The translations under genes and the position numbers were made by a program. 64,000 nt of DNA from Escherichia coli (GTDB taxonomy: Bacteria; Pseudomonadota; Gammaproteobacteria; Enterobacterales; Enterobacteriaceae). The stretch lies in NCBI RefSeq assembly GCF_003991155.1, contig NZ_CP031293.1. The stretch is one strand, 5' to 3'. Below, piece by piece: positions 16,842 to 51,165 of this stretch (its first letter is position 1; every line of letters begins with the position of its first letter). The notes beneath the pieces were generated by a model that did not search any database, had not been told where the DNA came from, and worked only from the letters and a program-made list of their open reading frames with translations.

Positions 16842-16928
16842 CATTCTGGTGGTCTTGACAAACTCGATTTTTTGTTTTAGCTTATCAATCAGCCTGTTAA
16901 AGGCTAAGGCGATCCCAGTCAGAGGAGC
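16842..16928 (+). repeat. att-like repeat copy B (island right end next to yeeJ)
   Basis: aaaaaggtggtcattctggtggtcttgacaaactcgattttttgttttagcttatcaatcagcctgttaaaggctaaggcgatcccagtcagaggagc; sits where asnT lies in recalled K-12 order (about 250 bp upstream of yeeJ). Confidence 0.75.
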
Positions 16929-17168
16929 AAAATTCTAAAAATTCGCTTTTTTAGCGCAATATCACTGACCTTAGTTGAGCATTGCTTTTTAATGGATAGC
17001 GGGTTTTTGACATCTTAAGCGCCCTCGACCTTTATGGTTGAGGGCGTTTTGCTATGAACGCCATCACCATTTTCCCCTCGATTATAAAACTTGAGTAATT
17101 CAGTAGTCTCCCCTCTTGCAACTCACACCCAAAACTGCTTAACGAAAAGTTATTAATTTTCAATCATA

Positions 17169-30781: not shown

Positions 30782-31238
30782 TTATATTTTAAAGAAATCT
30801 GTCTTTATGGCAGATTTCTTTAATCTCATATAATTCTTATAAAGAATATAATATCCAGCTCGTCATATTGATTATAAAACCCACGCTCCCAGAGAAATAA
30901 TATTTATTAAAATTCCAGGCCTTCTTTTTCTGATTACAGAAGGCAAAGTGGCAATTACGTATAGTTTCCCGATAAAGACGTGACAGCAACATCCCGCATA
31001 AGGCATTTTTCTCTTTATCTTTGTACGGTGCTTCATGGAACAGAGTTTTTGACCTTGCGAATCGTGATGTCTGTTGGGGGGCAATTTGCTCACTGAAGCG
31101 TGAGACTCGATTAAGCACACGAAACACAGAAATCAAAAAACCCGGTCACTTTTTTACAAGGTAACCGGGTAAAAATGATTTTATTTTTTAACTGTCTTGA
31201 GACTCATAGAGATGTCTCAAAACTAAAATTTGGCTCCT

Positions 31239-31338
31239 CTGACTGGGATCGCCGTAGCCTTTAACAGGCTGATTGATAAGCTAAAACAAAAAATCGAGTT
31301 TGTCAAGACCACCAGACTGACCACCATTTTTATTAGCG
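31239..31338 (-). repeat. att-like repeat copy C (tRNA-Asn 3' fragment plus island arm) bounding the defence-like cassette
   Basis: Minus-strand reading: tggtggtcagtctggtggtcttgacaaactcgattttttgttttagcttatcaatcagcctgttaaaggctacggcgatcccagtcagaggagccaaa. The adjacent 31196-31238 matches the hairpin downstream of the tRNA at 6085-6120. Confidence 0.75.
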
Positions 31339-31496
31339 TATATTTTCGCTATGGGCATACTGTCTATTCATTTAACACATGCACGTCTTATTAGAGCGAA
31401 AAGTGTACATTTCAAAAATGCTTTAATAGGATTTCTAGCTATGATGCTAAAGTATCACTACTTTTATGGATATAAACTAGACAGGAATGATGTGTT

Positions 31497-32414
31497 ATGA
31501 AGTCCAGATTTGGACCAAATGGGGTGCATTTATTCGACCGAAATACAGGTCTGAACGTCCTCCTGGAGGAGTTACGCCCAAAGGAATCTGTTTGGTCCAT
31601 TTCTCCACGCCAGGTCTCGATTGCACTTACCAATCTTTGTGACCTTCGCTGCGCACATTGTTTTGCGCCCAAGCATAAGGCATTGCTACATACTGACCAA
31701 GTGCTTACTTGGTTAAAAGAACTGGATACTGAAGGATGCCTCGGTATCGGATTTGGTGGTGGAGAACCAACACTGCATCCTGATTTCGTCGAAATATGTA
31801 AACGGGCTGCTGGGGAAACTCATCTTGCAGTCACATTTACGACTCATGGTCACCGTCTGACCCAGCCATTGGTTAAAAAACTCAAAGGCTCGATCCACTT
31901 TGCGCGCATTAGCGTTGACGGGATAGGTCATACCTACGAAGAACAACGTGGAAGGCAGTTTTCAAGTTTACTCAGAGGCATTGAGTCGATCGCGAAATTG
32001 TCGTCTTTTGGGATCAATGTCGTGATAAACGAGCGTACGATTTTTGAGCTTGACGCAGTGGCTGAGCTGGCGCAACAGTTTGGTGCTAGTGAATTGCTGT
32101 TGTTGCCTCAGCAAGCAACTAATGCAGTCGCAAGTATGGACGAATTGGTCGGCCGAGAGCTTCAAAACTGGGTCTCTAGCTATAGAGGAAAGGTTCGACT
32201 TGCAGTAAGTGAGGTGGGAGCGTCAGGGCTCCCCATATGTGACCCTCTTCCTAATGAAACAGGCCTTCAAGCCTACGCGCATATAGACGCTTCCGGGATA
32301 TTGCGCACGAGTTCTTATTCAACCACAGGTATGGATATTGAAGAAACTGGTGTTATGTCCGCGCTTAAACGGCTTAGAAATACCTTAGAGATTAAACAAG
32401 GGACACAATCATGA
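31497..32414 (+). CDS. Radical SAM enzyme (single 4Fe-4S cluster type, no SPASM extension)
   Basis: 305-aa ORF; CDLRCAHCF (CxxxCxxC, nt 31635-31658), GFGGGEPTLHP (GGEP SAM-binding motif), ARISVDG; stop overlaps the next start (ATGA at 32411-32414). Confidence 0.8.
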   Translation: MKSRFGPNGVHLFDRNTGLNVLLEELRPKESVWSISPRQVSIALTNLCDLRCAHCFAPKHKALLHTDQVLTWLKELDTEGCLGIGFGGGEPTLHPDFVEICKRAAGETHLAVTFTTHGHRLTQPLVKKLKGSIHFARISVDGIGHTYEEQRGRQFSSLLRGIESIAKLSSFGINVVINERTIFELDAVAELAQQFGASELLLLPQQATNAVASMDELVGRELQNWVSSYRGKVRLAVSEVGASGLPICDPLPNETGLQAYAHIDASGILRTSSYSTTGMDIEETGVMSALKRLRNTLEIKQGTQS

Positions 32415-32818
32415 AAATTTGGAACGGATACGGATCTGAGCATTCGATGAACTTAGTTCTCATCGGAAAATTCAAGCAAGAGCAAGATGCAGTGAAGGTC
32501 GAGAAGGATATTAAAACGCTCAGTACTCAGGCTGAGAAAGATGAATGTTACTCGATCCCTTTTGATGAGCCAGAGAATCAACGGTTTTCATATGAAATGC
32601 TCTCATTACTATGCAGCCTAAAACTCCACACTTTAGGACCAACCGATCTTGGTCAATTGGTGTCAGATCATCATCTAGATCGCGAAGGCGATAGAATAAC
32701 AATAACTACTGATGAGGCAGAGGTATCCGCGTTCGTGAAGCTGTTTGTCGAGGCTGGAGCAAAGGTCGAGATTTTCTCAGCGCATGACTATCCGTCCGAT
32801 TCCAGCGATGCCAGTTGA
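32411..32818 (+). CDS. Hypothetical 135-aa protein, translationally coupled between the radical SAM and NTPase genes
   Basis: Start overlaps the radical SAM stop; its own stop TGA overlaps the TTG at 32815. No recognisable motifs. Confidence 0.6.
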   Translation: MKIWNGYGSEHSMNLVLIGKFKQEQDAVKVEKDIKTLSTQAEKDECYSIPFDEPENQRFSYEMLSLLCSLKLHTLGPTDLGQLVSDHHLDREGDRITITTDEAEVSAFVKLFVEAGAKVEIFSAHDYPSDSSDAS

Positions 32819-35800
32819 CAGAGGATGCATTGATGCCTGAAGTAAATTGGAAAGTATTCAACGAACTGCCCGGTGCAGCAGATGTGAACTTCGAAAACCT
32901 TTGCCGCGCTCTGGTACGCCGACACTATGGTCGTTTCGGTCGCTTTAAGCAACTCGCAAATCAGCCTGGGGTGGAGTTTCACCTCGAGCTGACGGAGCCT
33001 TGTGATCTCGGTGCGCCACCAGGTTGGATTGGTTGGCAATGCAAGTGGTATGAACTGGTGAATGGACAAGATTTGGGAGCCTCCCGCCGCAACAAGATCA
33101 TCGAAGGTATCGAAAAGACGCGTAAGCATGTCCCTGGAGTGACCAATTGGAAGCTTTGGACTCATCACACGTTAACAAAAGGTGATCAAGAGTGGTTTTT
33201 CGCGCTAGAGCAAGACCGCTTCCCAGAATTGAAGTTAGAACTGCTCACAGCTACGGATATCGAAGATCTTTTGGTCGGACCGGGAGCGCTTTTACGAGAA
33301 ACCTACTTTGGTGAACTGGTTCTAACTCCAGAGCTAATTGCTGAGCAGTATAAGCTTGCAGTGGCCCCATTTAAGAACCGCTACCAGCCAGATGTTCATG
33401 TAGCGGTGGGGGCTGAGGAGAATATATTCAGGCATCTGTGCAGCCAAAACGCATGGGAATCTCTGGAAGAACTCTCAAACGCTTTAAAAAAGAATCATAC
33501 GAGCATTGCTTCGGTTACTGAGCAACTCAAAACTGAGCTCAGGGCTGAAGTTGAATTACTCCTGGCCCGGGTTATTGGGTTGACTGAGTTTATTGATGGC
33601 TTACACGCGGCGCTCGGCAAAGGTGACTTTAACTCTGTATATCAAGCGTTGGTTTCAAATCCGCGTCAGCCGGTACGTTATGACAGGCTACTTTCGAAAT
33701 TGCGTGGAGCGCGCTTTGACGGGGCTCCGTTAACCGCTAATTTGGTTGCAGATATCCACGCGGTTTCGTCAGTTCTCCGCAGTCTGGAGCAATCGATTAG
33801 TGCTCGGGCGGTTGCTGTTCTTGCGGCGGCGGGGGAAGGTAAGTCTGAACTTGCAGTCAAGGTAACACAGCCAGAAGGGGCGTTCCTAGGGGGAATCCTC
33901 CTATTAGGCAAGAATCTTCATTCAGGCCAGGGGCTTGATGATCTCGTATCTGCCTTCAAGATTTCTGGGAGACCAGCAGAAAGTTTTGACCGCCTGATTG
34001 AGGCCGTAGATGCGGCAGGCCAGCGTGCAGGTAAACGCATACCTATTGTTATTGACGGTCTGAATGAGGCGGAAGATCCGAGAAATTGGAAGGATGAATT
34101 ATCCCGAGTGGATGAGCTTCTAAAGAATTTTCCTTATGTCTTGTTAGTTGTCACTCTTCGCAATGAATTCGCCCAGATGTGTCTGCCTGAGGGGTTTCCC
34201 CAAGTTGAACATAATGGGTTTCAGGAAGATCCGAAGACAGCATTTGACAAGTATTTTGAGTACTACAAGATCGATGCTACTGATGCGGATCTACCAGTCG
34301 AACTCTTGCAGCACCCCTTAACACTGAGAATTTTTTGCGAAGTAGCAAATTCTCCTCGTCAGCATATTGTCGGAGTGGAAGCATTGCCCCGTTCGCTTGC
34401 AAGCCTGTTCGAAGCTCACTTTAACAAGGTTGCAGCACGAGTCGCTGAGCTTTCACCGACGATGCATCGCATTTATCAAGATGACGTTCAGGATGCACTA
34501 CTAACGATCGCGGGTCTTCTTTGGGATAACAATGCGAGAAGTGTGGATTTTCAGGCTACACGGATGGCAGTTCGGGATATGGGGTGGGACGACAGTATTA
34601 TTCGTGCACTGGAGTCTGAAGGCATTCTCGTTCGGACTATTTCTCCAGAAGGTAGGCAAGGAGTTGCGTTTGCATACGACCTAATGGCCGGACATATGAT
34701 GGCGCGCAACCTGCTTATGAAGCCTGAACTGGTGCAATGGCTACAAAGCGATGAAGGGAACGCAAAATTTAAATCTCATGGACCTGATTCGCATACCTTC
34801 GCTTATGACGTATTACGGGCTCTGGTTGATCTGTATCCGCAACACTCTGGTAGGCGGCAGCTTTGGCAAGACTTGTCGGATGATATACTCGTTATGAACG
34901 CTCTGCTATTGACGACGCAATCGGATCCAAGATATATCGGGCGGGCTACTGTTGAACGATTTGCTCAAGCTATGCAGGAGTCGAAGCGGTTTGCACAACT
35001 TGCCTTCGAGAGACTACGGAGCACTAGGGCTGCGCTGGCACATCCGTTTGATATGAGCTTTTTGCATGATGTGCTAATGGCTATGTCCAACACTCAGCGC
35101 GATCTTTTTTGGTCAGAGTGGATTCGTCAGAAATCTGAACAAGTTAAAGACGACTTAAAATTCTTGTCGACGAGATGGAAATCGGGTCATCTGGATGAGC
35201 GTGAACTTCGAAGAGTTCGCTGGGTAATGTGGACACTGACGACGACATCCAGAGCTTTGCGGGATATGGCTACCAAAGCCCTGTATGAATTTGCCATCAG
35301 GCGGCCAGAAGAGTTTTTCCGGTTAGCGACGGAGACAATTGTAGTTTCAGACCCATATGTCCCCGAGCGAGTGTTCGCCGCAGCCTACGGTGCAGTCCTG
35401 ACCACTTGGTCGGATATCGATGCGGTAGAGTTACATGATGCGTTGCCACGGTTCGCTCGTGAGATTTACCAAACCATGTTTGCACCTGGCGCTACAGCCC
35501 CTACCTGGCATGCATTACATCAGCAGTACTGTTTGGGAATCATTGCCATTGCGAGGATGGTCGATCCAAATTGTTTTTCAGAGGACGAAGCTGTTTATCT
35601 TCTTCCGCCATTTAGCCATCTGCCTAACGTATTTGAAAGCATTCAACCGTACGATCCAGAGATGATTGGGCGAGCGGAGAGCGCAGCGATTCAAATGGAC
35701 TTTGGTAACTATACGATTGGTGGACTTATTCCAGACAGAGCGAACTACGATGACAGTAATCCGGAGTACCAACAGGTGTTGCAGGCCATTGTTTCTCGAA

Positions 35801-36891
35801 TGCTGATGCTTGGTTATGACCCTGAGCAGTTTGAAGCTGTTGATCGGCAAATGTACTCCGGTTCTCGTATGGGAGATGACAAGCACAAAATCGATCGATA
35901 TGGCAAAAAGTACGGCTGGATAGCTTACTTCGAGATGTGGGGGATACGATACGCGCAGGGCCTCCTTTCCGAAGAACGCAGTGCTCGCCCATCAGATGCT
36001 GATATCGATCCAACGTTTCCGCAAAAAGTAGAGAGTATTAGTTTGTCACTCCCAGTCTTATTTAACGATCCGTCTGTGGATGATGGTGACTGGATCGTGG
36101 GAGGCCCGCTACCTGACTACCGTAGCATCCTTGAGATTACGGAGGTTGATGGTCTGACGGGGCCATGGATCCTACTTGACGGTTTTGTTGAGCAAAATGC
36201 TACCTCGGATGACCGACAGATTTTCACTTTCCTGCGAGGAGTATTCGTAGATAGCCAAGAAGTTGACAATCTATGTAGGTTGTTCATTGATCTTGAATAT
36301 CCTGGCAATAGCGCCATCCCTGATGCTCCTGGCTACTATTACACCTATGCGGGTGAGATGCCTTTCCCGACTATTCCGGGGCTGCTAGTCGCTAATGAAC
36401 AAGAGGATGATAGCGATGAAAATTTGGTGTTCGCAGAAAGATGGTCAGGCAATGGCGTTGCGGTAGATATCACAGTGCAGGACTACAACTGGGAGAGCTA
36501 CCATAGCGTGGAGAACCAAAGCAGCGGTGCGAGCCTGCCCTCAAAGCAACTTTGTGAGGCTTTGAATCTCAGATACTGTGCAAACAAATGGGATTTGCAT
36601 GATGCTGCAGGTGTAGCGTCACTTTACCGCAAAATTGACGAAAATGGTTCGGACGTCAGTGGCTCTGTCAGCTATCTACGTCGTGATCTACTTGACCGCT
36701 ATTTGATGCAATCCGGTAAGGTATTGGTATGGCTTATGTGGGGAGAGCGTGGTTTTCATTACCGGTCCAACAAGACACGCAATTTGCACAGGTATTACGT
36801 GAATCACCAACATATTCACAAGCGTATTCATATCCATCAGATAGCTTCGAGTACTAGTAACCCAAATATTGCGGATGGAGTCGCTATATGA
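32815..36891 (+). CDS. NACHT-like STAND NTPase with an N-terminal Mrr-like nuclease-fold domain and a long C-terminal region (NLR/Avs-like)
   Basis: 1358-aa ORF (TTG at 32815 or ATG at 32833). N-terminus FENLCRALVRRHYG...EPCDLGAPPGWIGWQCKWY resembles an Mrr-cat type D...QxK nuclease. Walker A VLAAAGEGKSE (nt 33823-33849, aa ~340); Walker B IPIVIDGLNEAED (aa ~410) then LLVVTLR. About 850 aa of C-terminus without enzymatic motifs. Confidence 0.8.
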   Translation: MTEDALMPEVNWKVFNELPGAADVNFENLCRALVRRHYGRFGRFKQLANQPGVEFHLELTEPCDLGAPPGWIGWQCKWYELVNGQDLGASRRNKIIEGIEKTRKHVPGVTNWKLWTHHTLTKGDQEWFFALEQDRFPELKLELLTATDIEDLLVGPGALLRETYFGELVLTPELIAEQYKLAVAPFKNRYQPDVHVAVGAEENIFRHLCSQNAWESLEELSNALKKNHTSIASVTEQLKTELRAEVELLLARVIGLTEFIDGLHAALGKGDFNSVYQALVSNPRQPVRYDRLLSKLRGARFDGAPLTANLVADIHAVSSVLRSLEQSISARAVAVLAAAGEGKSELAVKVTQPEGAFLGGILLLGKNLHSGQGLDDLVSAFKISGRPAESFDRLIEAVDAAGQRAGKRIPIVIDGLNEAEDPRNWKDELSRVDELLKNFPYVLLVVTLRNEFAQMCLPEGFPQVEHNGFQEDPKTAFDKYFEYYKIDATDADLPVELLQHPLTLRIFCEVANSPRQHIVGVEALPRSLASLFEAHFNKVAARVAELSPTMHRIYQDDVQDALLTIAGLLWDNNARSVDFQATRMAVRDMGWDDSIIRALESEGILVRTISPEGRQGVAFAYDLMAGHMMARNLLMKPELVQWLQSDEGNAKFKSHGPDSHTFAYDVLRALVDLYPQHSGRRQLWQDLSDDILVMNALLLTTQSDPRYIGRATVERFAQAMQESKRFAQLAFERLRSTRAALAHPFDMSFLHDVLMAMSNTQRDLFWSEWIRQKSEQVKDDLKFLSTRWKSGHLDERELRRVRWVMWTLTTTSRALRDMATKALYEFAIRRPEEFFRLATETIVVSDPYVPERVFAAAYGAVLTTWSDIDAVELHDALPRFAREIYQTMFAPGATAPTWHALHQQYCLGIIAIARMVDPNCFSEDEAVYLLPPFSHLPNVFESIQPYDPEMIGRAESAAIQMDFGNYTIGGLIPDRANYDDSNPEYQQVLQAIVSRMLMLGYDPEQFEAVDRQMYSGSRMGDDKHKIDRYGKKYGWIAYFEMWGIRYAQGLLSEERSARPSDADIDPTFPQKVESISLSLPVLFNDPSVDDGDWIVGGPLPDYRSILEITEVDGLTGPWILLDGFVEQNATSDDRQIFTFLRGVFVDSQEVDNLCRLFIDLEYPGNSAIPDAPGYYYTYAGEMPFPTIPGLLVANEQEDDSDENLVFAERWSGNGVAVDITVQDYNWESYHSVENQSSGASLPSKQLCEALNLRYCANKWDLHDAAGVASLYRKIDENGSDVSGSVSYLRRDLLDRYLMQSGKVLVWLMWGERGFHYRSNKTRNLHRYYVNHQHIHKRIHIHQIASSTSNPNIADGVAI

Positions 36892-37052
36892 GTTACGACT
36901 TCAGAAATCTTTCATCCGCAAACTTTGAGGATCTTGTGCGGGATCTTATCGAAAAAGAAGAAGGGTTCGCTTCGAAGCATTCTCTGTGGGGGCTGATAAT
37001 GATATTGATGGCCGACACGCACATGCTGGAGGGAATGTCAGTTTATAGGTAA
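36888..37052 (+). pseudogene. Short ORF resembling an Mrr-like N-terminal fragment (possible remnant of a further gene)
   Basis: 54 codons overlapping the NTPase stop (ATGA): MSYDFRNLSSANFEDLVRDLIEKEEGFASKH...; the FEDLV..L motif echoes the N-terminus of the NTPase protein; followed by ~1 kb with no ORF. Confidence 0.3.
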
Positions 37053-38005
37053 AACCTTATGAAGGGGCGTCGTTTAGTATACTGATGGCTATTATGAAGT
37101 GTGAGTGGTTGTCTAAAGATAAGCTAGCCCTCACACGCTGTATCAAGCGACCTCTTGTTAGCTTACTCCAGCTAGCAAGAGTAAACTTTCCCCACTCATA
37201 GGGCTATGTTTGAAGTCCGAGTCGGAAATTGGGGGGCAGAAGACATAAAAGGTCTCCTTAAGAAGTCTTCTTGTCTGTACAAAAACTCTTATTTTGACAA
37301 AGAGCATTGTAGTTATTAACAGGCTGATTAATAAATTTAAAAATAAGTCGTCAGGAACACCAGATTAGCTACCCAAATTCTCATGCCGTGGAAGCGGAAG
37401 AAAAATACTCCCCTGAATATCTTCATATCGGATATACATAATAAGCTTGAGGTTGTATATTTGAAGAATTGAGTAGCCAGAGCCTTGTTGACATAAAGCG
37501 ACACGAACAACATGTTACTTAAAATATCACGAGTATATATTCAGACTTGTTTATGTTGCGACATGGATTCTACAGGCAGCTGGCTGAAACAGTGAGTCAG
37601 AAAAATTTACAGGAGCGCCATAGTCATTAATGGATATCCGTAATATGCTGATGCAAAAGGGTAAGGAGTTTGCCGGTAATCTGCGGTGTTAGACGACAAT
37701 TACAAAACGACCTTAGGCGTCAATTACCGCTGAAAAAAGTGACAGATCACTTTCTATAAAATGCTGCCGTATGACCGACAGATTTATTCCGCTTTATAGC
37801 CATGACTGTTCGGTGCTCACTTCGCTGCGCTCCGCCTCAGTCCTGCCTAAAAAGCGTTGCAGGTTAGTTTGTATCGGCCTAATGAAAGGCTGTTTTAGCG
37901 AAGCGTAAATGTGACATCTTATCTGGTCTAATCTCTTTGCGATAATTGACGCAAAAGCATGGGCTGTAATTGTCACGCAATACTGCGGCAAGTCTCATGA
38001 TGATG

Positions 38006-38100
38006 CCTCTGACAGGGATCTCCGTAGCCATTAACTGGTCGATTGGTAAGCTAAAACAAAAAAATTGAATTTGTCAAGACAGCCATAATGACTACCATTT
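38006..38100 (-). repeat. att-like repeat copy D (degenerate), internal boundary of the composite island
   Basis: Minus-strand reading: tggtagtcattatggctgtcttgacaaattcaatttttttgttttagcttaccaatcgaccagttaatggctacggagatccctgtcagagg; the tRNA-derived end is truncated and diverged. Confidence 0.65.
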
Positions 38101-38264
38101 TCGTCTCTGCTTTTCCATCCTGAAATTAATGGCTATCATATTCGCAATAGACAACATCATCTTACTTGCACTCAACTATAACTAATGCTGAGTGCAAGAA
38201 ACGGGGATTATATCCCCTATCAAGGACCTGTTGAAATATTAGTCTGGAATTTCGAGGCTGTAAT

Positions 38265-38789
38265 TTAAATTGCTCCATTTGCCTTAGCATCAAGAATGAA
38301 TTTTTCATACTCGCGTTCTGCAACAACAACAGGGACTGTTTTGCGATTATATAATTGCATTAATAACAATGTACGATGCCTTCCATCAGAAACACCAAAT
38401 TCACTGTTAGATGCCTCTGGATATTCAACATACCCTTTTGATATATATTTTTTGATTTTATGCCATCTACGCGGATCAATGCAGAATGCTCCATCTCCTA
38501 ATTTTTTAAGAAAGGCTAGCCCATCGACATATACAATCCTGGTAGGACAATGCCGATAGCGTACAGGAAGGGTAAAGATAATATTTTCAAAAACAGGGAA
38601 AGTAAGACCTGAATCATCTTTAGGTATTGACTCAAAGGAATCAAAAGGATATTTTGTCATGTAATCATTTAGTTTTTCAATATCCATATTGGAAAACCAC
38701 GATACTTCCGGGAGAAATTTTTTATCTCTTTCTCTAATTTCTTTGATCGAATCTCCAAATATATCATCTAACCTCCACCCCTCTTTCAT
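38265..38789 (-). CDS. Hypothetical protein with a DGxHR motif (ParB/Srx-like fold suspected)
   Basis: 174-aa AT-rich ORF; ...EFGVSDGRHRTLLLMQL... resembles the DG(Q/H)HR core of ParB-like nuclease-domain proteins; last gene of the orphan Rhs array. Confidence 0.4.
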   Translation of the reverse strand: MKEGWRLDDIFGDSIKEIRERDKKFLPEVSWFSNMDIEKLNDYMTKYPFDSFESIPKDDSGLTFPVFENIIFTLPVRYRHCPTRIVYVDGLAFLKKLGDGAFCIDPRRWHKIKKYISKGYVEYPEASNSEFGVSDGRHRTLLLMQLYNRKTVPVVVAEREYEKFILDAKANGAI

Positions 38790-38833
38790 TTATGCTCCTA
38801 AAATAATGTGATATTAAAAATTCTGTTAATAAG

Positions 38834-39349
38834 TCAAATTTTATGAATACTAATAAGGGGTTTGCACCACTCAACCGAGAGAATATCTTCCATTTTATAA
38901 AAAACGCCATAATCACTTTGATTATAATGCTCAATTTTATCAGCCATTTGTAATCTAATTTTGTCTTTGTAAATTCTACTTCGGATCAAACTGGCGAAAT
39001 TATATATATCAACCCTCAGATTGATAATATTATTTCTATCTGGGCGTCTTTCATGTAACATATCACGAAAAGAAACAAGTAACGTAATTAATTTTTTAGC
39101 CTCATTATTTTTAATATATCCTTTTTTAAAGATGCATAATATTAATTTTGAAATTAAGCTGATTTTTATTTGTAAATTATAGATAGCATTATCGTTTGTC
39201 AGGCAGGTTATGACTTCAATTACTTCACGTGAGCGAATATAATTGTCCAGTGCTTCCCATTCATCCATTCCTCGATGCATTGAAAGTTCCAATTGCCTTA
39301 AAAAAGCATATAACCCCAATAAGAAGTCGCTATTGCAGTATATTTTCAT
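38834..39349 (-). CDS. Putative immunity protein for Rhs fragment B
   Basis: 171-aa AT-rich ORF overlapping by 4 nt the stop of the Rhs C-terminal fragment. Confidence 0.5.
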   Translation of the reverse strand: MKIYCNSDFLLGLYAFLRQLELSMHRGMDEWEALDNYIRSREVIEVITCLTNDNAIYNLQIKISLISKLILCIFKKGYIKNNEAKKLITLLVSFRDMLHERRPDRNNIINLRVDIYNFASLIRSRIYKDKIRLQMADKIEHYNQSDYGVFYKMEDILSVEWCKPLISIHKI

Positions 39350-40835
39350 GAATCACATCCTTTAATAAAACTCATTATTCGTGACCAAAAAGAGTCTTTT
39401 TTGTATATAGGGTTTTTATCGTTTAATGGTAAAGGATCGTCTGTTGGTATAACGGCTGTATTTCTTGGCCCAACATTTGTTTTAGTAAGTGAATCTTTGG
39501 AAGCATCAAACTCTACATAAGAACCATTCTTCCATGCCCCTGTTTCTGCACCTGCCGTTTTAGGATCTCCAAATGGCTCCACCTCAACGTGTACACCAAC
39601 AGGATTGCCTCTGGCAGGGTTGATAGACCCATCCTTGCTAATTCCATCAATACCCTCTGTTGAAGTATGATGTCTAACTCTAACAGTATCGTCACCAGTT
39701 AACCCTAACGGATCAATAATTTTTAGCGGATTAAATACATATCCATACAGGCAATCCCCACCTCTCAGCCCCATCGGATCAGCACACAGATACTGCCCCG
39801 TATCGCAATCATAATACCTGAATCGGTTATAGTACAGGCCTGACTCAACATCCTCGTACTGCCCCGGAAAACGTAACCGGCATGTGGGCGCATCTTCTTT
39901 ACTGATGCCTTCCTCACGCCCCCAGAGCTGCTGCTTGCCTTTCCAGACTATCAGACCCTCTTCGGTCAGCAGTTCTTGTACGCGGCCAGTTGTGTCTGTT
40001 ACCGCATAATGCAGTTGCCCCTTTTCATAACGCGCAAACGGCGTGAAATCTCCCGGCTCGTATATCCAGCGGATGGCGTTTTCATCTTCCGGTTTGCCGT
40101 CAGCGCCAACCGGAATTTCCGCCGTCAACTGGTCGCCGTTCCAGTGAAAATCCATGCCGCGTTTGTCGCGGCTGGTACAGCGCTTGCTGATGCGCCTGCC
40201 GAACGGGTCATACTTATATTCCCAGCGTTCGCCCTCCGGTGTTTCCAGTCCGGTCAACTGGCTGCGTGCATCCCATTTATAACGCCATTCCAGTGGGCGA
40301 TAACCCCCTTTATCCACCAGTTTCTGTACCAGCCTGCCGTTAACATCATATTTCCAGGTGATGTTGTGCGCATTCACCACCCGGACAAATCTCCCGTCTT
40401 CCCCTTTTCCGGTGTCCGGGTTGATGCGATGCGTCGAGTGCCGCCAGCCTTCATGTTCCCGCGATACCACACGACCATGCTGCTGTTGCTGGTGCGTCTC
40501 GCTTTCCAGTACGTTATTCACCCTGATCTGGCGACGGGTAATGTTCAGGTTTTTATCGTAAGTGAACAGCTCCTCGCACAGCGGAAACTGGCTGGAATCA
40601 CCCGTCCAGGTGGCGTGGCTTATCTGGTCGTTTGCCGTGATGGTGTTGAACATGGAGCCGCGCAGCGAGTCGGCGATTGCGGTGAGGTTATACGCTTTGT
40701 CGTAGCTTCGCTGCGTCGGGAGGTTTCCATGCCGCACAGGTCGTGCTCAAATGTCAGCGGGGCATGGTCCGCTATTCGCCATGACGTAAGATGCCCCATC
40801 AGGTCGCGGGTGAAGCGTTCTGTGATACCCTCAGC
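39346..40835 (-). pseudogene. 5'-truncated Rhs fragment B (last ~350 aa of core plus a distinct C-terminal toxin tip)
   Basis: ORF 39346-40737: ...GLYYNRFRYYDCDTGQYLCADPMGLRGGDCLYGYVFNPLKIIDPLGL then a unique ~120-aa tip. DNA 39690-40835 is homologous to 10150-11340 of the main Rhs gene, with a frame disruption near 40700-40760. Confidence 0.8.
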
Positions 40836-40850
40836 CTGTAATTTTACAGG

Positions 40851-41303
40851 TTAAATGGGGAATTTTTCTTCAATGAGCTTCAAGCCAAGTAATGCCATAT
40901 CATGAATATCTTCATCATGCGATTGAGCCGAAATTTTCAACCCGTTTACCATTCTTTTATCTGGGAAAGACATTGTTAATATAGTACACCAAAGCCTAAC
41001 GCTTTTTATTGTGTTAGGATTTTCGAGTATGTTAACGATATTTATAACAACATCATTAAAATCACACTTATAGAGAAAATCCTCAACAATTTGATATACT
41101 CCAAGACCATCACCCTCACCAAAAGATCGCAAAAATAAAGGTATTGCATCTTTATCGGGATGGGAAAGAAAGTAAATTCGTACCTCATCGTATTTATCTA
41201 TAAGATCCTGAGTAATATCACAATCCGCGGGCATTGGTTGATGTAGTGACAGGAACTCTAATGCTTCTTTTTTATTCATATTCATATATTTAATGATTCC
41301 CAA
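40851..41303 (-). CDS. Putative immunity protein for Rhs fragment A
   Basis: 150-aa ORF immediately 3' of Rhs C-terminal fragment A. Confidence 0.5.
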   Translation of the reverse strand: MGIIKYMNMNKKEALEFLSLHQPMPADCDITQDLIDKYDEVRIYFLSHPDKDAIPLFLRSFGEGDGLGVYQIVEDFLYKCDFNDVVINIVNILENPNTIKSVRLWCTILTMSFPDKRMVNGLKISAQSHDEDIHDMALLGLKLIEEKFPI

Positions 41304-41763
41304 AGTTTTTTATTCTGTCTGGCTAACTCATATAGTTGTTCAGTGATGACCTTTTTATCATAGCCTGCATTTGTTAAGATTTTTCTTAGGTCATCTATAT
41401 CCCTTTTCAAATATTGTTCTTTTGTCAAACCTCGAACAAATGCTCGTCTGAATGTCCAGGTAAGAGCATGTAAATCTTTACGCAGATTTATCGTAATTCC
41501 CTTACATTTTGTTGTGGGGCTTACCGCATCCTGAATGGCATGATGAGGTGTATGAGTTGCATTAAGCCCTGTTTTACCATTCGCATAAATTGAAGAACCA
41601 TATGTACCAACGTATAAATCTTCTCCTGGACCAGCTAACAATCCCAAGGGATCAATCCATACCAGTGGATTTGGAGCGTAATTGTAAAGGTTTACTCCCC
41701 CCGACAGTCCAATCGGATCAGCACACAGATACTGTCCTGTCTCGCAATCATAGTACCGGAACC
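41282..41763 (-). pseudogene. Rhs C-terminal fragment A, truncated at its 5' end by IS3 copy 2
   Basis: ORF 41282-41812 runs into the IS; ...YRFRYYDCETGQYLCADPIGLSGGVNLYNYAPNPLVWIDPLGL then a unique ~130-aa tip. Confidence 0.8.
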
Positions 41764-43013
<1,250 letters not shown>

Positions 43014-43016
43014 CCA

Positions 43017-43385
43017 CTACAATGAGAGCATAAGTACACCTGCCGTCATTTCTGGTACGGCAACGCCCCCCGGTGTATAAGCTGTCCCGTTAATGATGAT
43101 GTCACAGGCGGGTTTCAGGGGGGCGAGGTCGCTTTCGCGCAGTACCGGAGATGTGTTCATCTCCCCGGCATACTCATCTTCCACACACAGCGGTAGCGGC
43201 GGGTTTTCGATAAGTTGGGTTTGCCACTGACCATTTTCGTCCCGTTGCAGCCGGAAGCCCGTTTTCATGGCGATAACGCGGTGACGTTCGCTATGTTTAT
43301 CATCCATCGCATATTCTATCGCTGAAAACGGCGTCAGGTTACGAAATTCCATATTGCACCCCGATCCCGTCTGTACCTGTCGCAA
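43017..43385 (-). CDS. Hypothetical 121-aa protein (possible effector-associated adaptor); last codons now replaced by IS sequence
   Basis: MEFRNLTPFSAIEYAMDDKHSERHRVIAMKTGFRLQRDENGQWQ...; the reading frame runs 5 nt into IS copy 2. Confidence 0.5.
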   Translation of the reverse strand: MRQVQTGSGCNMEFRNLTPFSAIEYAMDDKHSERHRVIAMKTGFRLQRDENGQWQTQLIENPPLPLCVEDEYAGEMNTSPVLRESDLAPLKPACDIIINGTAYTPGGVAVPEMTAGVLMLSL

Positions 43386-43964
43386 AACATAATTCTACAG
43401 ATGGCACAGTATCCCCCTGATACAGGTAAAAACTTATTTCACGGAAACCGGCATAGCAAACTGGATGACACAATACCGGGCAAAACGATAAGTATGGTTA
43501 CTATATGAAACGGAATACTCCCGTTTCGTATTATTTTTTTTGACTGATATCAACGGGACGAATTAACTGACAGGATATTTACTGGAAAGTGTCTGCATAT
43601 TGCTCAATATATTTTTAATGGAAATGTATTCTCCATTAATATTTATGGTGTGATTGTGTTTCCCTGTGTGTCAGCTTCCGCTAAACCCCTTGCTGCAAAT
43701 TACCGATCATTGTATTGTTGCGCCGCGCCTGCAAAATCAGGCGTCGGGATTGGAACCCTGATAAGTGTTACAGGCGACATATAGCGCATTTTGCGTCTTT
43801 TTTATGTCGTGCGTCTGGCTGCATCTCAATGGTGGGCTGGACGGGGGCGTCGCAAGACGCGCCGGTTTCCTGTAACACCGGTAGTTCCAACCCCGTTCAG
43901 TTCACCACCAATGAGATTGGAACCTCTGGTGGTGGAATTACCACCCGTTACAGGAGGCTATCCT

Positions 43965-44426
43965 ATGGTTATCATCCTTTCCCCTGACTGCGACTTACTT
44001 TCCATCCCCTTCAGTGCCACCACGGATTTCACCGATCTGGCCGACTACTGCGATCGCTTCGCTGAAACCCTGATCGAATGCCACGATCCGGCGCTGAAAA
44101 TGGCGCTTTATGGCAGGATCAACGCCAGCCTTGCGCTGCTGCGTCCCTCGTTGGGCGAGCCGATCCCGCTGCACCTGATCGACCGTTTCATTGTGGACAC
44201 GCTTCCCGACGTTTCACCGCGCTTTGAACCCGGCGCAGGGCTGCTCTGTGACTACTGTCTGGCGCTGACGCAGGTATTAAGCGGGCGGTCGCTGCTGCCG
44301 GAAACCGAAACCACACTGACCGGGTTGCTGTGCGAACTGGTCTGGTATTTTGCCGCCGACCTTAAAGCGCCGCAGTGGCTGCGCACCGCTGATGGCTTAC
44401 AGGTTATTGACGGGGGGACGGTATGA
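43965..44426 (+). CDS. Hypothetical protein of the P4-like module
   Basis: ORF 43791-44426; probable start at 43965 (MVIILSPDCDLLS...) preceded by AGGAGG at 43952-43957. Confidence 0.5.
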   Translation: MVIILSPDCDLLSIPFSATTDFTDLADYCDRFAETLIECHDPALKMALYGRINASLALLRPSLGEPIPLHLIDRFIVDTLPDVSPRFEPGAGLLCDYCLALTQVLSGRSLLPETETTLTGLLCELVWYFAADLKAPQWLRTADGLQVIDGGTV

Positions 44427-44677
44427 TGCAACCGGACTGGCATCCCGCCGATATCATGGCAGCACTGCGAAAACGTGGTACGTCGCTGGCAGCGGTTTCC
44501 CGCAAAGCGGGACTGGCGTCCGCCACACTGGCAAACGCGCTGAGCCGCTCCTGGCCGCGTGGCGAAAAACTCATTGCGGATGCGCTGGAAACATCACCGG
44601 AAATTATCTGGCCGTCCAGATATTTCGATGATCAGGGCAACCGTATTGTAAGGCTCATGCGAAAGCAGTGCTCCTGA
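44423..44677 (+). CDS. Ner/Nlp-family small DNA-binding regulator
   Basis: 84 aa: ...WHPADIMAALRKRGTSLAAVSRKAGLASATLANALSRSWPRGEKLIADALETSPEIIWPSRY... Confidence 0.7.
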   Translation: MMQPDWHPADIMAALRKRGTSLAAVSRKAGLASATLANALSRSWPRGEKLIADALETSPEIIWPSRYFDDQGNRIVRLMRKQCS

Positions 44678-44826
44678 TGACAGAAGTGTCAGAAACACGA
44701 TTACAGTAAAATCAGGCTCTCCCGGCTCTCTGCCTGCTTCTGCTGGCGGAGAGCCGGGAGAAGACAAGCGAAGCGCGGCAGGATGCCATCCCGCTGTTGA
44801 TAACAGTCACAACCGGAGTCGTTTTT

Positions 44827-45099
44827 ATGCACATGTTTAATCCACCCCATCCGGGTGACGTCCTTCGCGATTATCTGGACGGCGTGAGCATCACGCAGGC
44901 CGCTTCCCGGCTTCAGGTATCGCGCTCGCGGTTATCCCGTATCCTCAATGGACATGCACCAGTGACGGCTGATATGGCGCTACGTCTGGCGGCGCTGCTG
45001 AATACCCGCGCTGAACTGTGGACGGGGATGCAGTCTGAGTATGGCCTCTGGCAGGCGTCACAAAAACCACGACCCGTTATCCGGTCATTGCGGGGTTAA
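44827..45099 (+). CDS. HigA/VapI-like HTH (XRE-family) protein
   Basis: MHMFNPPHPGDVLRDYLDGVSITQAASRLQVSRSRLSRILNGHAPVTADMALRLAALL...; no partner toxin ORF found. Confidence 0.65.
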   Translation: MHMFNPPHPGDVLRDYLDGVSITQAASRLQVSRSRLSRILNGHAPVTADMALRLAALLNTRAELWTGMQSEYGLWQASQKPRPVIRSLRG

Positions 45100-45864
45100 C
45101 TCAGCATTTTACATTCACAAATACACGATAAAATCAGGGGGAAAACCAATATCCAGAAAAATGAGTTTCCCCTTTCTGCGCCAGAAATAACGGTGTAATC
45201 TCCCTCCTGCATTGTCGCCTTCGGGCACCCTTTGGCTTCATGGTCTGCAAGAAGCCCCTGATTTATCAGGATGACCAGCCCTTACTACCGGTACGACCTC
45301 CGCAATACCGGAACGCGAAAGCGTTTGAGGCTAAGAGTACATACACCCGAACGGCTTCATCGTCATTGCTTAACGGCAACAGTCTTCACCGGCTGAACGG
45401 CTTTTCTTTGCCGGAATTTCCCGACTGCCCCATACCCAGCTGAAAACAGCGCCCTTTACATGACGGGCTGCGGCCTGCATTGCCGTCAGGCTTTGCTGCC
45501 GCGTGACCGTCATTCTGCACCAGAAACGCAACGTTTACCCCCTGCACCAGATGAGGCGTCACTTTGGTCGCGCCAGCGAAAAAGCAAAGTGACGCCGTAC
45601 AACATACCGCCGCAAGCCGCGCCAGTTCTGGCCTGCGTCCTGTTTCCGCCGTCTGACATGCCCTTTGGGGCGCTGTCAGTCCAGAGTAAAGGAGAAAAAG
45701 ATCGATACCGAGGGGGGCACGACGCCCCGGAGATACCCCTGCTTCGTCAGGCAGTCTGTACCGCGTACAGCCTGAAACTCCCTAAACCTCAACAATCAGC
45801 CACTCCGGCGTGAAGGTATCGTTCTGGCGCAGCCAAAAAGCACACGCCGGAGACTGTTTGTTTT

Positions 45865-46767
45865 TTGTTGCAGGGGGTAGTTATGAGCAAATTAAGCAGT
45901 GAAATGAAGGCGCTGGCGAAAAAAGCAGGCGGTAGTTTCAGAACGGTGGACTACCGTATCCATGCCACGAAGCGGTTCAGTCAGCATTTACGCGAACTGA
46001 ATATTCAGATCCAGCGGGTGGAGCAGATCAAAGTTCGCCATATCGAATGCTATATTCAGGAGCGGCTGGAGCAGGATATTGGCCTGCGCACGCTGCAAAA
46101 CGAAATGGCGGCGCTGCGGGCCGTGCTGAGGCTGGCGGGACGCCGGCAGGTGGTGGAGCATCCGCGCCTGACCAATAAGGCGCTGGGGCTGTCAGGTGCT
46201 TCGCGCAACGGCACGCGTCGCGCCATCACGCCGGAACATTATGAAAAAGTGATGGAGAACGCCCGCGCACAGGATGCGGGGCTGGCGGCAGCGGTGGAGA
46301 TCGCGCGACTGATGGGATTACGCTCGCAGGAGGCGGTACAGAGTTCACAGTCGCTGAAAACGTGGCTGAAAGCCATTTCCCGCGGCGAAACCCGGCTGAA
46401 AGTGGTGTTTGGCACCAAAGGCGGGCGTCCGCGTTACACGACGCTCCTGGACGCTGGCGCAGTCAGGAAGGCGGTGGAAAACGCATTACCGATCGCCAGA
46501 CAGCGCAATGGCAGGCTGATCGACAAGCCAGACCTTAAAACGGCGCTGGAGAGCTGGCACAAACAGGCCATTAAGGCGGGGCTGAAAGGGGAATTTTCCC
46601 CGCACTCGCTGCGTTATGCGTGGGCGCAGGACGCGATCCGCCATTATCTGGCGCAGGGATTCAGCGAAAAGGAATCGCTGGCGCTGACGGCGACGGATCT
46701 GGGTCATGGCGACGGTCGCGGCCGCTGGGTGAAACAGGTGTACGGCTACCGCTGGAAGGAGGAATAA
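45865..46767 (+). CDS. Integrase-like protein (putative tyrosine recombinase domain)
   Basis: 300-aa ORF; C-terminal ...FSPHSLRYAWAQDAIRHYLAQG...VYGYRW has an R/H/Y arrangement suggestive of a recombinase catalytic region. Start may be MSKLSSEM (45883). Confidence 0.45.
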   Translation: MLQGVVMSKLSSEMKALAKKAGGSFRTVDYRIHATKRFSQHLRELNIQIQRVEQIKVRHIECYIQERLEQDIGLRTLQNEMAALRAVLRLAGRRQVVEHPRLTNKALGLSGASRNGTRRAITPEHYEKVMENARAQDAGLAAAVEIARLMGLRSQEAVQSSQSLKTWLKAISRGETRLKVVFGTKGGRPRYTTLLDAGAVRKAVENALPIARQRNGRLIDKPDLKTALESWHKQAIKAGLKGEFSPHSLRYAWAQDAIRHYLAQGFSEKESLALTATDLGHGDGRGRWVKQVYGYRWKEE

Positions 46768-46841
46768 CGGCTTTCATGAATGGCGCAAAATAGTACGTTA
46801 CTGCGTAACGACAGCGATTTATCGTACCCTCTGTACCGGAT

Positions 46842-47520
46842 CTGGCGCAGGGGGCGAGCGGGTTTGTATTGTGAAAATATCGTTACAGCATGACGAATAA
46901 ATATCAATAGCTCAGATTTTCCTGCTGAACCAATGTAGCTCGCCGGAATATTATAGTGATTACCCGGTAATCACTCGAAACGATCCCGATTAATAGCTGG
47001 TGTTTCAATCGTTTTACCGATATTACAGGTACAGGGTCGGGAAATTTTAAAATGTAAACTCACCGAGGCATCACATTAATTCTGGCGCAGGATTATATCT
47101 GAATAATTCTCTCTGTGTTTTCCTGCATCCTGTGACATATATTGCATGGTCACAGAATGTCTCATGATTTTATAAAAAATGCTGCGACGGTTTTTGACAT
47201 CATAACCTGCTGCATATAGATTAATAATTTTCGGTGCTTCATGTTATTTTTTTGCGCTCTGTGATCGTTATCTGGTGGTGAAAATACAATCTGGTGCAGA
47301 CTGTCATGGTGCATTTCTGAATAAACTGGTTGCGCCAGAAAGGGAAAGGGCCATAAAGGTTAAGGGGCGATAAGGGTAACAGCGCCTGACCGGAAAGGGC
47401 CGAAAACCAAAGAGCCAGAAACTGGCGCAGTCCTGAATGTGTGAAGTGGCGAGACGCTGGCGCAGATAACCGATCTTCCGGGGCTGGTGCAGATTATTTC
47501 GTCTCTGTATATCTGGTGCA
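46842..47520. repeat. Iteron-like direct repeats CTGG(C/T)GCAG (at least 7 copies) in a 1.2-kb non-coding region
   Basis: Copies near 46842, 47082, 47291, 47422, 47455, 47483, 47512; short palindromes at 46964-46982 (gtgattacccggtaatcac) and 47129-47155. Confidence 0.6.
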
Positions 47521-47625
47521 GTTATAATATGTATCAGGGAAGGCTGTCCGGTATTTTATGACGCCTCTTTTAGAGTATATTAATTGGTATTTCCGTGAAA
47601 ATATCGCTTATTGATAGTTTTTCAT

Positions 47626-47655
47626 CTTCCGTGATTAACGCGTTAATCACGGAAG
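47626..47655. promoter_or_regulatory. Perfect 30-bp palindrome (operator-like) upstream of the integrase
   Basis: cttccgtgattaacgcgttaatcacggaag; followed by a second inverted repeat acctatcaa(N11)ttgataggt at 47662-47690. Confidence 0.55.
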
Positions 47656-47841
47656 ACTGTTACCTATCAAAAAAAGATATATTGATAGGTAACGGTCAAA
47701 TTTTATTTGGGGCCAAATAATTGTAGATACTTTCCGATTGGTAATAAAAAAGAACAACGGCAATACCTCTCAATACAAAAAAGCAGATCCCGGCCAATCA
47801 GGATCTGCTTTTCCATTTTAATGATTTCAGCTATTTATGAC

Positions 47842-49104
47842 TCAGGCTGCCTTATGCTGCCGCGCATAAATATACGGCGCGACATACCCCTCGCGGCACA
47901 CATCCAGATAATCCGACCACCACTGCATCATGGCCTTTCTGGCCTCCAGATGCTCCGCTTTATGCACATAGGCCGCCCGCACGCTGTTACGCTCCTAGTG
48001 GCTCATTTGCCGTTCCACCGTATCGCGTGACCAGAGATCCGACTCTACCAGGGCGCTACAGGCCATTGCGCGAAGTCCATGTCCGCACACATCGGTTTTC
48101 GTATCATACCCCATCAGGCGCAGCGCCCGGTTGGTTGTGTTTTCGCTCATTGGCTTGTACGGGTTATGGTCGCCGGGGAATACCAGATCCAGATGGCCGG
48201 AAAGCTCCTGTATCTGTTTCAGAATGGCAATCGCCTGGCGGGAGAGTGGCACGATATGCGGACTACGCATTTTTGCGCCACGCCCCGAAAACCGTACTTT
48301 GTCGATGGCCTCGCGGGTGGCGGGGATGGTCCAGATTTTGTGCCTGAAATCAATCTCGCTCCAGCGGGCGAAACGCAGTTCGCTGGAACGGATGAACAGG
48401 TGCAGTGTCAGCACCACCGCCAGCCGGGTTAACTCCCGGCCCTGCCGGTAATCGCCAATACGATCGAGCAATTCAGGCAACCGCTCCAGCGGTAAAGCGG
48501 GATAGTGATTCTTGACGGGAGAGGCGACTACACCATCCAGATGCTGCGCCGGGTTGCTTTCGGTCAGTCCCTGCTGAACGGCATAGCGCATGATGTTGCT
48601 GAGTTGCTGCCGGGTTCGGGACGCGACTTCCAGAAAGCCCTTATCCTCAATAACCCGCAGCAAAGCCGTGAAATCCTGCGTTTTAAGCGCAGCAACGGGC
48701 AGATGACCAATCGCCGGGAAGATATGGTTTTCCATACTGGCGAGAATACGGGCGGCATAATCAGCCGACCATTTTTTGTTGGTTTTGTGCCAGGCCAGCG
48801 CCACCGCCTTAAAGCACTTTTCAGGGGAGCAGGCGGATTTCTCTGCCATACGCTGTTGCGCCGGGTTGATATTCTGCGCCAGTAGCTTGCGGATACCGTC
48901 GCGCTGTTGCCTGGCTTCTGCCAATGAGACAAGCGGATATGCGCCAAGACTGACTCTGGATTCTTTTCCGTTGAAACGATATTTGAGATACCAGATGCGT
49001 GAACCACCCGGATTGACGAGCAGATACAGACCCTGAGAGTCGGAGAGTTTTACCGGACGGGAAGAAGACTTTAACTTGCGGATTTTAGAATCGTTTAAAG
49101 ACAT
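47842..49104 (-). pseudogene. P4-type integrase with an in-frame amber codon before the catalytic tyrosine
   Basis: ORF 47995-49206 ends ...VERQMSH at TAG (47995-47997); the same frame continues ERNSVRAAYVHKAEHLEARKAMMQWWSDYLD... to 47842. The integrase at 6227-7513 has CAG (Q) at the equivalent codon. Adjacent to tRNA-Asn. Confidence 0.8.
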
Positions 49105-49265
49105 TTGGGGGTCACTCCAGAATCGAACCAAACTGACCCCAGATCTGACCACCAAATTATCCCGATGCGGAGAGAAAATTAGATACGCACCGGGAAGGAT
49201 TTTCACGCTAACTTACTGAATCGTAAACAAATAGAGACGCATAGATAAGCATGAAAACTTGAATT

Positions 49266-49341
49266 TGGCTCCTCTGACTGGACTCGAACCAGTGACATAC
49301 GGATTAACAGTCCGCCGTTCTACCGACTGAACTACAGAGGA
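49266..49341 (-). tRNA. asnW: tRNA-Asn (GTT)
   Basis: Reverse complement is identical to the tRNA-Asn at 6009-6084; lies between the integrase and yeeO. Gene symbol from recalled K-12 synteny. Confidence 0.9.
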
Positions 49342-51089: not shown

Positions 51090-51165
51090 TCCTCTGTAGT
51101 TCAGTCGGTAGAACGGCGGACTGTTAATCCGTATGTCACTGGTTCGAGTCCAGTCAGAGGAGCCA
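51090..51165 (+). tRNA. tRNA-Asn (GTT)
   Basis: Identical 76-nt sequence; upstream context yeeO (asnU-like), downstream context ldtA (asnV-like) by recalled K-12 order. Confidence 0.95.

Follow-up and report, generated by a model that had tools for sequence, protein, structure and literature searches.

The window, a stretch of 64,000 nucleotides of Escherichia coli DNA, carries an operon on the plus strand in which the gene of a radical SAM protein is followed by a DUF6375 gene and by the gene of an Avs2-type STAND NTPase. The locus has the following features:

31231..31246 (+): 16-nt copy of the 3' end of the tRNA-Asn gene, the distal attachment-site repeat; exact match to TGGCTCCTCTGACTGG, with 0 expected by chance
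31317..31344 (+): weak sigma-70-like promoter match about 150 nt 5' of avap1; 9 of 12 positions in a consensus scan
31497..32414 (+): avap1, radical SAM gene with an ATG start, 305 amino acids
31638..31661 (+): codons of C48-x3-C52-x2-C55, the predicted [4Fe-4S] cluster ligands for SAM
31758..31769 (+): codons of G88-G89-E90-P91, the GGE SAM-binding motif, invariant in a 43-sequence alignment
32411..32818 (+): avap2, DUF6375 protein of 135 amino acids; Pfam PF19902, E 9.8e-60
32833..36891 (+): Avs2-type STAND NTPase of 1352 amino acids; PADLOC Avs2, E 7.7e-116, and NCBIfam Avs2
49266..49341 (-): intact tRNA-Asn gene found with ARAGORN, at which the island is integrated and has its proximal end

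The start of avap2 and the stop of avap1 share four nucleotides (ATGA), and the ATG of the Avs2 gene at 32833, which is also the RefSeq start, is preceded by GAGGA. In the consensus scan, the region upstream of avap1 has no more sigma-70-like matches than its own shuffles, and neither terminator scans nor a composition profile of the operon were informative. An island of about 18 kb, bounded by the tRNA-Asn gene and its 16-nt repeat, carries the operon at its far end. In an identical genome, the annotation of this island includes an integrase-domain gene towards the tRNA end, and the flanking host genes are the E. coli genes shiA, amn and yeeN. Among 5426 complete E. coli genomes, 25 carry the operon. 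The sequence-only reading had coupled the radical SAM gene to an NTPase, and this association holds, as the NTPase is the next gene but one, with the DUF6375 gene between them. The 1352-residue Avs2 protein consists of an Mrr-like nuclease at about residues 1-125 (with K71), a helical linker, an NTPase (Walker A motif GEGKS, K337) and a C-terminal sensor; its N-terminus matches the Avs4 nuclease region in PADLOC.

An operon of this kind is already in the literature. In Klebsiella pneumoniae S_15PV, the KpAvs2 operon comprises Avap1 (radical SAM), Avap2 (DUF6375) and KpAvs2 (Béchon et al., Nat Commun 2024, PMC11564622), the last with an Mrr nuclease, a STAND NTPase and a C-terminal sensor. The order of the genes is the same in E. 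coli, down to an Avs2 with an Mrr-like nuclease; the host differs, as the operon described here sits in an E. coli tRNA-Asn island. All three E. coli proteins cluster at 90% identity or more with many K. pneumoniae proteins, and K. pneumoniae copies (S_15PV's own sequence not among them) are 94% identical for Avap1 and 96% identical for Avs2, without gaps. With 1352 amino acids, K71 and K337, the Avs2 of the window matches both the length and the mutated residues of KpAvs2 (PMC11564622). Two genomes from Fig. 1B of that paper, Nitrospirae JdFR-85 and Syntrophobacterales Delta_02, were found again in our own locus scan. The gene at 31497..32414 is almost certainly avap1, which encodes the radical SAM accessory in an anti-phage Avs2 operon of the KpAvs2 type.

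Avap1 has been known since 2024 as an accessory of the NLR-like anti-phage protein Avs2. Avs2 detects phage proteins and degrades DNA via its Mrr-like nuclease; Avap2 binds KpAvs2 at the helical bundle between nuclease and NTPase, and full defence requires Avap2 (PMC11564622). Defence against T2 needs the contribution of Avap1, and defence against SECphi18 works without it (PMC11564622). The sequence-only reading had allowed that it could fail if the gene proved dispensable for any phenotype of the operon, and the need for Avap1 against T2 speaks against such dispensability. No deletion of avap2 could be obtained while avap1 and KpAvs2 were present (PMC11564622), which suggests toxicity. The same authors looked for pVip-type (ddh-) nucleotides during infection and detected none with the KpAvs2 operon, and their model of Avap1 contains no NTP-sized pocket. 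Avap1 and Avap2 are defined in that paper only as neighbours of Avs2, and no pairs lacking Avs2 are reported there.

Avap1 contains six cysteines in all (48, 52, 55, 81, 101 and 248). The sequence-only reading had placed the CDLRCAHC motif at residues 47-54 and GGEP about 25 residues later; both motifs are present, the first at residues 48-55 and the second at 88-91, 33 residues after C55. Pfam Radical_SAM (PF04055) matches residues 44-182 with an E-value of 3.9e-15, and 2551 proteins match at E<=1e-5, well above what chance would give. The three marks of the radical SAM superfamily, namely CX3CX2C, GGE and a partial TIM-barrel core, are all found in the protein. C48, C52 and C55 are unchanged in 43 aligned family members and in the stand-alone pairs considered below, and over the 25-88% identity spanned by the alignment GGEP, T115/T116 and R137/S139 are likewise invariant. 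Beyond cluster and SAM binding, the family also keeps R137/S139, R151, H262 and the sheet residues R4, G9, R15 and G18. Conservation close to invariance thus marks both ends of the protein, namely the N-terminal residues R4, G9, R15, G18 and E25 and, in the C-terminal hairpin, H262.

An AlphaFold2 model of Avap1 (mean pLDDT 94.5, pTM 0.91) begins with a three-stranded beta-sheet (residues 2-23) ahead of the barrel. Strands alternate with helices in the core, a partial TIM-barrel spanning residues ~39-237. The C-terminus (260-304) is structured and free of cysteines, with a beta-hairpin (260-263/268-270) and a long helix (286-304). After residue 101 the only cysteine is C248, and the last 100 residues of the 43-sequence alignment contain no cysteine that is conserved, so that the SPASM/twitch cysteine extension is absent, as the sequence-only reading had maintained. 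Its description of a minimal, catalytically competent enzyme also agrees with the motif residues being invariant across 25-88% identity. Judging from its sequence, Avap1 keeps each residue required for [4Fe-4S] cluster and SAM binding, and it looks like a compact and catalytically competent radical SAM enzyme.

Among radical SAM enzymes, Avap1 belongs to the MoaA/PqqE/SkfB/viperin branch. Foldseek comparison of the model with the PDB gives TMq values of 0.74-0.76 for SkfB and SuiB and 0.62-0.68 for viperins, and the SkfB and SuiB alignments span 280-289 of the 305 Avap1 residues. Neither QueE nor an activase is among the top 50 PDB matches. Searched against PDB sequences, the Avap1 family profile finds SkfB at 9e-21 and viperin-like enzymes at 3e-19 to 4e-18, with lower matches to SuiB (2e-14), MoaA (1e-13) and PqqE (3e-13), and finds no QueE or activase at E<=1e-3. 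In another comparison with PDB sequences, PqqE is the second-best match. In NCBIfam the best model is MftC (7.6e-18), followed by viperin (5.6e-16), with NirJ1 and MoaA also present, and all of these matches are far under the cut-offs. The sequence matches all end near residue 200-215, which implies that the C-terminal third is specific to the Avap1 family.

Several identities were set aside on these grounds. Housekeeping MoaA is ruled out, as Avap1 reaches 53.4 bits with TIGR02666, whose cut-off is 284, and the operon occurs in only 25 of the 5426 E. coli genomes; orthology to a housekeeping enzyme, the other way in which the sequence-only reading could have failed, was thus not found. QueE and the activases (PflA, NrdG) are ruled out by the fold and profile comparisons, since Avap1 has close sequence or fold similarity to neither. 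The earlier preference for a QueE-, viperin- or activase-like enzyme over a peptide maturase therefore survives only for viperin, and there only for the core, with SkfB and SuiB nearest.

SkfB and SuiB are RiPP maturases of the SPASM/twitch group, which Avap1 resembles in its core and overall fold. The likeness has clear limits. Identity is only 12-20%, and Avap1 has neither auxiliary Fe-S cysteines nor a full RRE domain. SkfB and SuiB act on a short precursor peptide, whereas the partner of Avap1 is a folded protein of 120-135 amino acids. MftC and PqqE function with small partner proteins from adjacent genes, and in this arrangement MftC/MftB and PqqE/PqqD are like Avap1 with its neighbour. 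However, MftB and PqqD are winged-helix (RRE) peptide chaperones and MftC and PqqE have SPASM clusters, and neither feature is found in Avap1 or Avap2.

The main alternative to a protein substrate is that Avap1 resembles viperin in making a small molecule with an antiviral or signalling role, be it a nucleotide analogue different from the ddh-nucleotides that were looked for or some other metabolite, with Avap2 as a regulator or receptor that signals to Avs2. The PADLOC pVip models match at 5e-20 and the NCBIfam viperin model at the value given above, and Avap1 is compact and lacks an auxiliary cluster, as viperin does. Avap2 is predicted to be a small beta-alpha-beta-beta-alpha-beta domain, a fold that is common in ligand-binding regulatory modules. 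The viperin matches are nevertheless confined to the core: NF038283, with a cut-off of 180 bits, reaches 58.5 and covers only residues ~40-180, the pVip matches extend over profile positions 2-150 of 257, and the C-terminal, NTP-binding half of viperins, which holds the substrate, is unmatched in Avap1. Both SkfB and SuiB resemble Avap1 more closely, with alignments that take in a larger part of it. The published work found neither pVip-type nucleotides in infection nor an NTP-sized pocket (PMC11564622). The company of the enzyme differs as well, pVips working alone or with kinases and Avap1 with DUF6375 and Avs2. We regard a small-molecule product as unlikely, while noting that stand-alone pairs could act as single-gene viperins plus a regulator.

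The conservation of the operon was examined in a locus scan that took one genome per species and used 11 closer Avap1 sequences as seed, and the best 80 of 173 stretches were kept. The Avap1 relatives in these 80 loci are 46-87% identical and come from Proteobacteria, Actinobacteria, Cyanobacteria, Planctomycetes, Verrucomicrobia, Firmicutes, Nitrospirae, Acidobacteria and other phyla. Wherever enough downstream DNA was present in the 80, the order was Avap1, Avap2, Avs2 on one strand, and in about 60 of 72 loci the stop of Avap1 and the start of Avap2 share 4 nt. In 57 complete operons, the mean pairwise identity of distant pairs is 49.9% for Avap1, 43.4% for Avap2 and 37.5% for Avs2; within Avs2 the nuclease, at 53%, is comparable to Avap1, and the sensor stands at 25.5%. 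Avap1 thus shows the strongest conservation among the three proteins, as would be expected of an enzyme under strong constraint rather than of a decaying passenger. Distances correlate among the operon proteins (Spearman 0.54 for Avap1-Avs2 and 0.40 for Avap1-Avap2), although these correlations reflect common inheritance and say nothing on which partner Avap1 contacts.

These figures bear on the idea that Avap1 is non-catalytic, a SAM- or redox-sensing subunit or a decoy attacked by phage, and provides a second trigger for Avs2. The SAM- and cluster-binding residues would stay conserved in a sensor too, and the need for Avap1 against some phages only is as expected for an extra sensor input (PMC11564622). 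We consider this role improbable. The residues invariant beyond cluster and SAM binding fit an enzyme with a defined substrate, and we know of no radical SAM sensor of this kind that has been described. Sensor surfaces of defence systems usually diverge fast, as the low conservation of the Avs2 sensor domain illustrates, whereas Avap1 is the most conserved component of the operon.

The full-length Avap1 family extends well beyond the Avs2 operons, down to 25-30% identity in a search of 1.84 billion representative proteins. Among distant relatives (25-32% identity), a DUF6375 gene adjoins the radical SAM gene in all cases where the contig has room for a neighbour. In L089/L090, the pair is followed by an opposite-strand gene and then by HEPN/Polbeta pairs and transposases. 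In L093 its neighbours are toxin-antitoxin genes (HigB, VapBC, Gp49) and a PD-Lambda-2_B homologue. In L088 and L092 DUF6375 comes first and the radical SAM gene second, the two sharing 4 nt here as well, and the pair in L092 adjoins PDC-M30A. The pair of L095 belongs to a contig of 58 kb that is predicted to be viral. When 57 Avs2 proteins served as tblastn queries, no Avs2 was found within 8 kb of the pair in any of these loci (L088, L089/L090, L092, L093 and L095). Pairs of this kind often have defence genes around them, in defence islands.

Stand-alone DUF6375 sequences, used as the seed for a scan of metagenomes, gave 19 loci, in 18 of which a radical SAM gene of the family is directly upstream of DUF6375. 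One of the 19 has an Avs2 match, and at least 10 have no Avs2 in 1.4-8 kb of downstream DNA; two carry tandem DUF6375 copies. Two short AT-rich contigs (L082, L087) show no Avs2 N-terminus downstream, but their length does not allow them to be taken as firm examples of stand-alone pairs. A DUF6375 scan of viral contigs returned only two loci. The two genes of stand-alone pairs meet at -4, -17 or +1 to +4 nt, in genomes of 25% to 61% G+C. Their nearest neighbours receive varied assignments from PADLOC and NCBIfam, and all-against-all BLASTP of 4 kb on each side found no recurrent third gene, except in two near-identical contigs. In a quick neighbour-joining distance tree, the Avs2-linked radical SAM proteins group in a single clade that excludes the stand-alone ones, with the catalytic residues kept in all.

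Given that the pair is kept with or without Avs2, we conclude that the functional unit is the radical SAM protein together with DUF6375, and that one lineage of this unit joined Avs2. As far as the genomes compared here can tell, Avap1 and Avap2 are an obligate, translationally coupled pair that is older than its link to Avs2. The searchable literature does not appear to contain any report of the stand-alone radical SAM and DUF6375 module.

The most conserved stretch of Avap2 is residues 1-21, and its N-terminal peptide, MKIWxGYGSEHS, is nearly invariant. M1, W4, H11, S12, G19 and F21 are invariant in DUF6375 proteins with and without Avs2 nearby, and K2, G8, E10 and L15 are near-invariant in both kinds of loci. 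Since the peptide is conserved also in loci without Avs2, binding to Avs2 cannot be its constraint, and the radical SAM enzyme would be its only other constant partner. The family profile of DUF6375 matches nothing among PDB sequences below E 0.3. A fused AlphaFold2 model, Avap1-(G4S)7-Avap2 (30 paired sequences, pTM 0.63), predicts for Avap2 a beta-alpha-(alpha-alpha)-beta-beta-alpha-beta domain with good confidence. Residues 1-13 lie outside this domain at pLDDT <50, in a construct whose linker blocks the invariant free N-terminus. This crude test, with the N-terminus occupied by the linker, gave no confident Avap1-Avap2 interface or placement of the Avap2 N-terminus.

We suspect that Avap1 acts on or through Avap2, and that the likeliest mode is protein- or peptide-directed radical chemistry, a view that we hold tentatively and with somewhat less than even confidence. 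In this scenario, Avap1 would generate the 5'-deoxyadenosyl radical, and its radical chemistry would be directed on or through Avap2. The invariant 13-residue N-terminal peptide of Avap2 would be the best candidate for a modification site or docking element. In the Avs2 operon, the role of the pair would be to adjust Avs2 or to give it a further input, and not to make nucleotides of the viperin type. Protein-directed chemistry is suggested by the closest folds, SkfB and SuiB, and by MftC as the best NCBIfam match, as well as by the exceptional conservation of Avap2 residues 1-21, whose motif is kept without Avs2. The lack of ddh-nucleotides and of an NTP pocket points in the same direction (PMC11564622).

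Other evidence argues against a protein-directed mechanism. Avap1 has no auxiliary clusters, and to our knowledge nearly all crosslink-forming peptide maturases characterised so far have SPASM/twitch clusters. By profile, viperins are nearly as close to Avap1 as SkfB is. Because defence against SECphi18 dispenses with Avap1 and requires Avap2, a modification of Avap2, if there is one, cannot be essential to its basic role. The fused-chain model, although a weak test, showed no confident interface between the two proteins. Taken as a whole, with the firm identity of avap1 and the proposed mechanism blended, we judge this explanation slightly more probable than not.

A different target is conceivable, with Avap1 modifying Avs2 or a nucleic acid. 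Avap2 would then be an adaptor that brings Avap1 to Avs2, or else Avap1 would act on phage DNA that is already modified and so open T-even genomes to the Mrr-like nuclease. T2 DNA contains glucosyl-hydroxymethylcytosine. PqqD and MftB present substrates to PqqE and MftC, the closest NCBIfam relatives of Avap1, which use such small partners encoded next to them. The binding of Avap2 to the helical bundle of KpAvs2, the importance of Avap1 for T2, and the suspected toxicity of avap1 and KpAvs2 when avap2 is removed would also be in keeping with such a role (PMC11564622). On the other hand, stand-alone pairs without Avs2 within 8 kb imply that Avs2 was not the ancestral substrate, and the predicted secondary structure of Avap2 is unlike the winged-helix RRE pattern. 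We therefore think it quite doubtful that Avs2 or nucleic acid is the target.

Returning to chemistry directed on or through Avap2, a bolder version is that the pair is an autonomous and widespread module, serving stand-alone defence or protein modification, that predates Avs2 and works by radical chemistry on, or gating by, the N-terminal peptide of DUF6375. In Avs2 operons, it would provide a second, phage-specific input. This is a possibility that we put forward with considerable reserve.

As Avap1 is already published as an accessory of an NLR-like receptor, the finding as the sequence-only reading stated it is no discovery. For anti-phage immunity, the point of interest is that a pattern-recognition receptor has a radical SAM enzyme attached to it, one that is apparently active and required against some phages only. 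Given that the conserved unit is the pair, the search for the substrate should centre on Avap2 and its surroundings, and pairs without Avs2 are worth testing for an activity of their own. If the pair is self-contained, it would represent a second kind of radical SAM immunity besides the viperins.

The Avs2 operon, in which genes for a radical SAM enzyme (Avap1) and a DUF6375 protein (Avap2) precede that of the STAND NTPase Avs2, lies in a genomic island of about 18 kb integrated at a tRNA-Asn gene. The window holds the following elements of the island and other tRNA-Asn sites:

31231-49341, genomic island
31231-31246, 16-nt direct repeat of the tRNA-Asn 3' end
49266-49341, minus strand, tRNA-Asn gene at the island end
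6009-6084 and 51090-51165, two further intact tRNA-Asn genes
3662-3677 and 16915-16930, two 16-nt copies of the tRNA-Asn 3' end, with one mismatch

The additional tRNA-Asn genes and the one-mismatch copies suggest that further islands have inserted near tRNA-Asn genes in this region and left remnants. According to the annotation of an identical genome, cargo beyond the Avs2 operon comprises fragments of RHS toxins with small ORFs 3' of them, an IS3 element, and genes for a HigA-like antitoxin and an integrase-domain protein.

Within the operon, a mechanical ORF list begins Avs2 at 32815 with a TTG overlapping the stop codon of avap2; the RefSeq start is an ATG at 32833, just preceded by GAGGA. 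The ATG agrees with the N-terminus kept in homologues, and the gaps in close relatives are 13-15 nt.

The segment of DUF6375 that is best conserved, across all lineages, is the N-terminal peptide of Avap2:

32411-32449, Avap2 residues 1-13, MKIWxGYGSEHS

These residues fall outside the predicted beta-alpha-beta-beta-alpha-beta core and are modelled with low confidence. The DUF6375 sequence profile found no relative in the PDB.

Pairs of radical SAM and DUF6375 genes also occur with no Avs2 within up to 8 kb (loci L089, L093, L095, L100, L102, L106 and L108-L110 of our genome, viral-contig and metagenome scans); in 16-kb loci such a stand-alone pair sits at about position 8000. Toxin-antitoxin and defence genes are often among their neighbours, such as HEPN/Polbeta, HigB, VapBC, a PD-Lambda-2_B homologue, a type IIG restriction-methylase and PDC-M30A, and one pair is carried by a predicted viral contig of 58 kb. 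In a metagenomic locus (L103, 32-863), frameshifts split the stand-alone radical SAM gene into three pieces. The neighbouring DUF6375 gene is intact, and the split copy is a pseudogene or the product of a sequencing error.

Some distant family members (L088, 7594-8891; L092, 501-1771) have the inverted order, DUF6375 then radical SAM, and keep a 4-nt overlap; two other loci (L097, 6709-8366; L098, 645-2278), with no Avs2 nearby, have a radical SAM gene followed by two tandem DUF6375 genes.

Outside the Avap1 family, AlphaFold DB matches ranked 16-30 are uncharacterised radical SAM proteins of about 290-370 aa, such as A0A662J4L2 and A0A2S9TR76 from Aliarcobacter. Their identity to Avap1 is 19-24%, at a whole-length TM-score of about 0.8, and they may represent a sister family that shares the Avap1 architecture.
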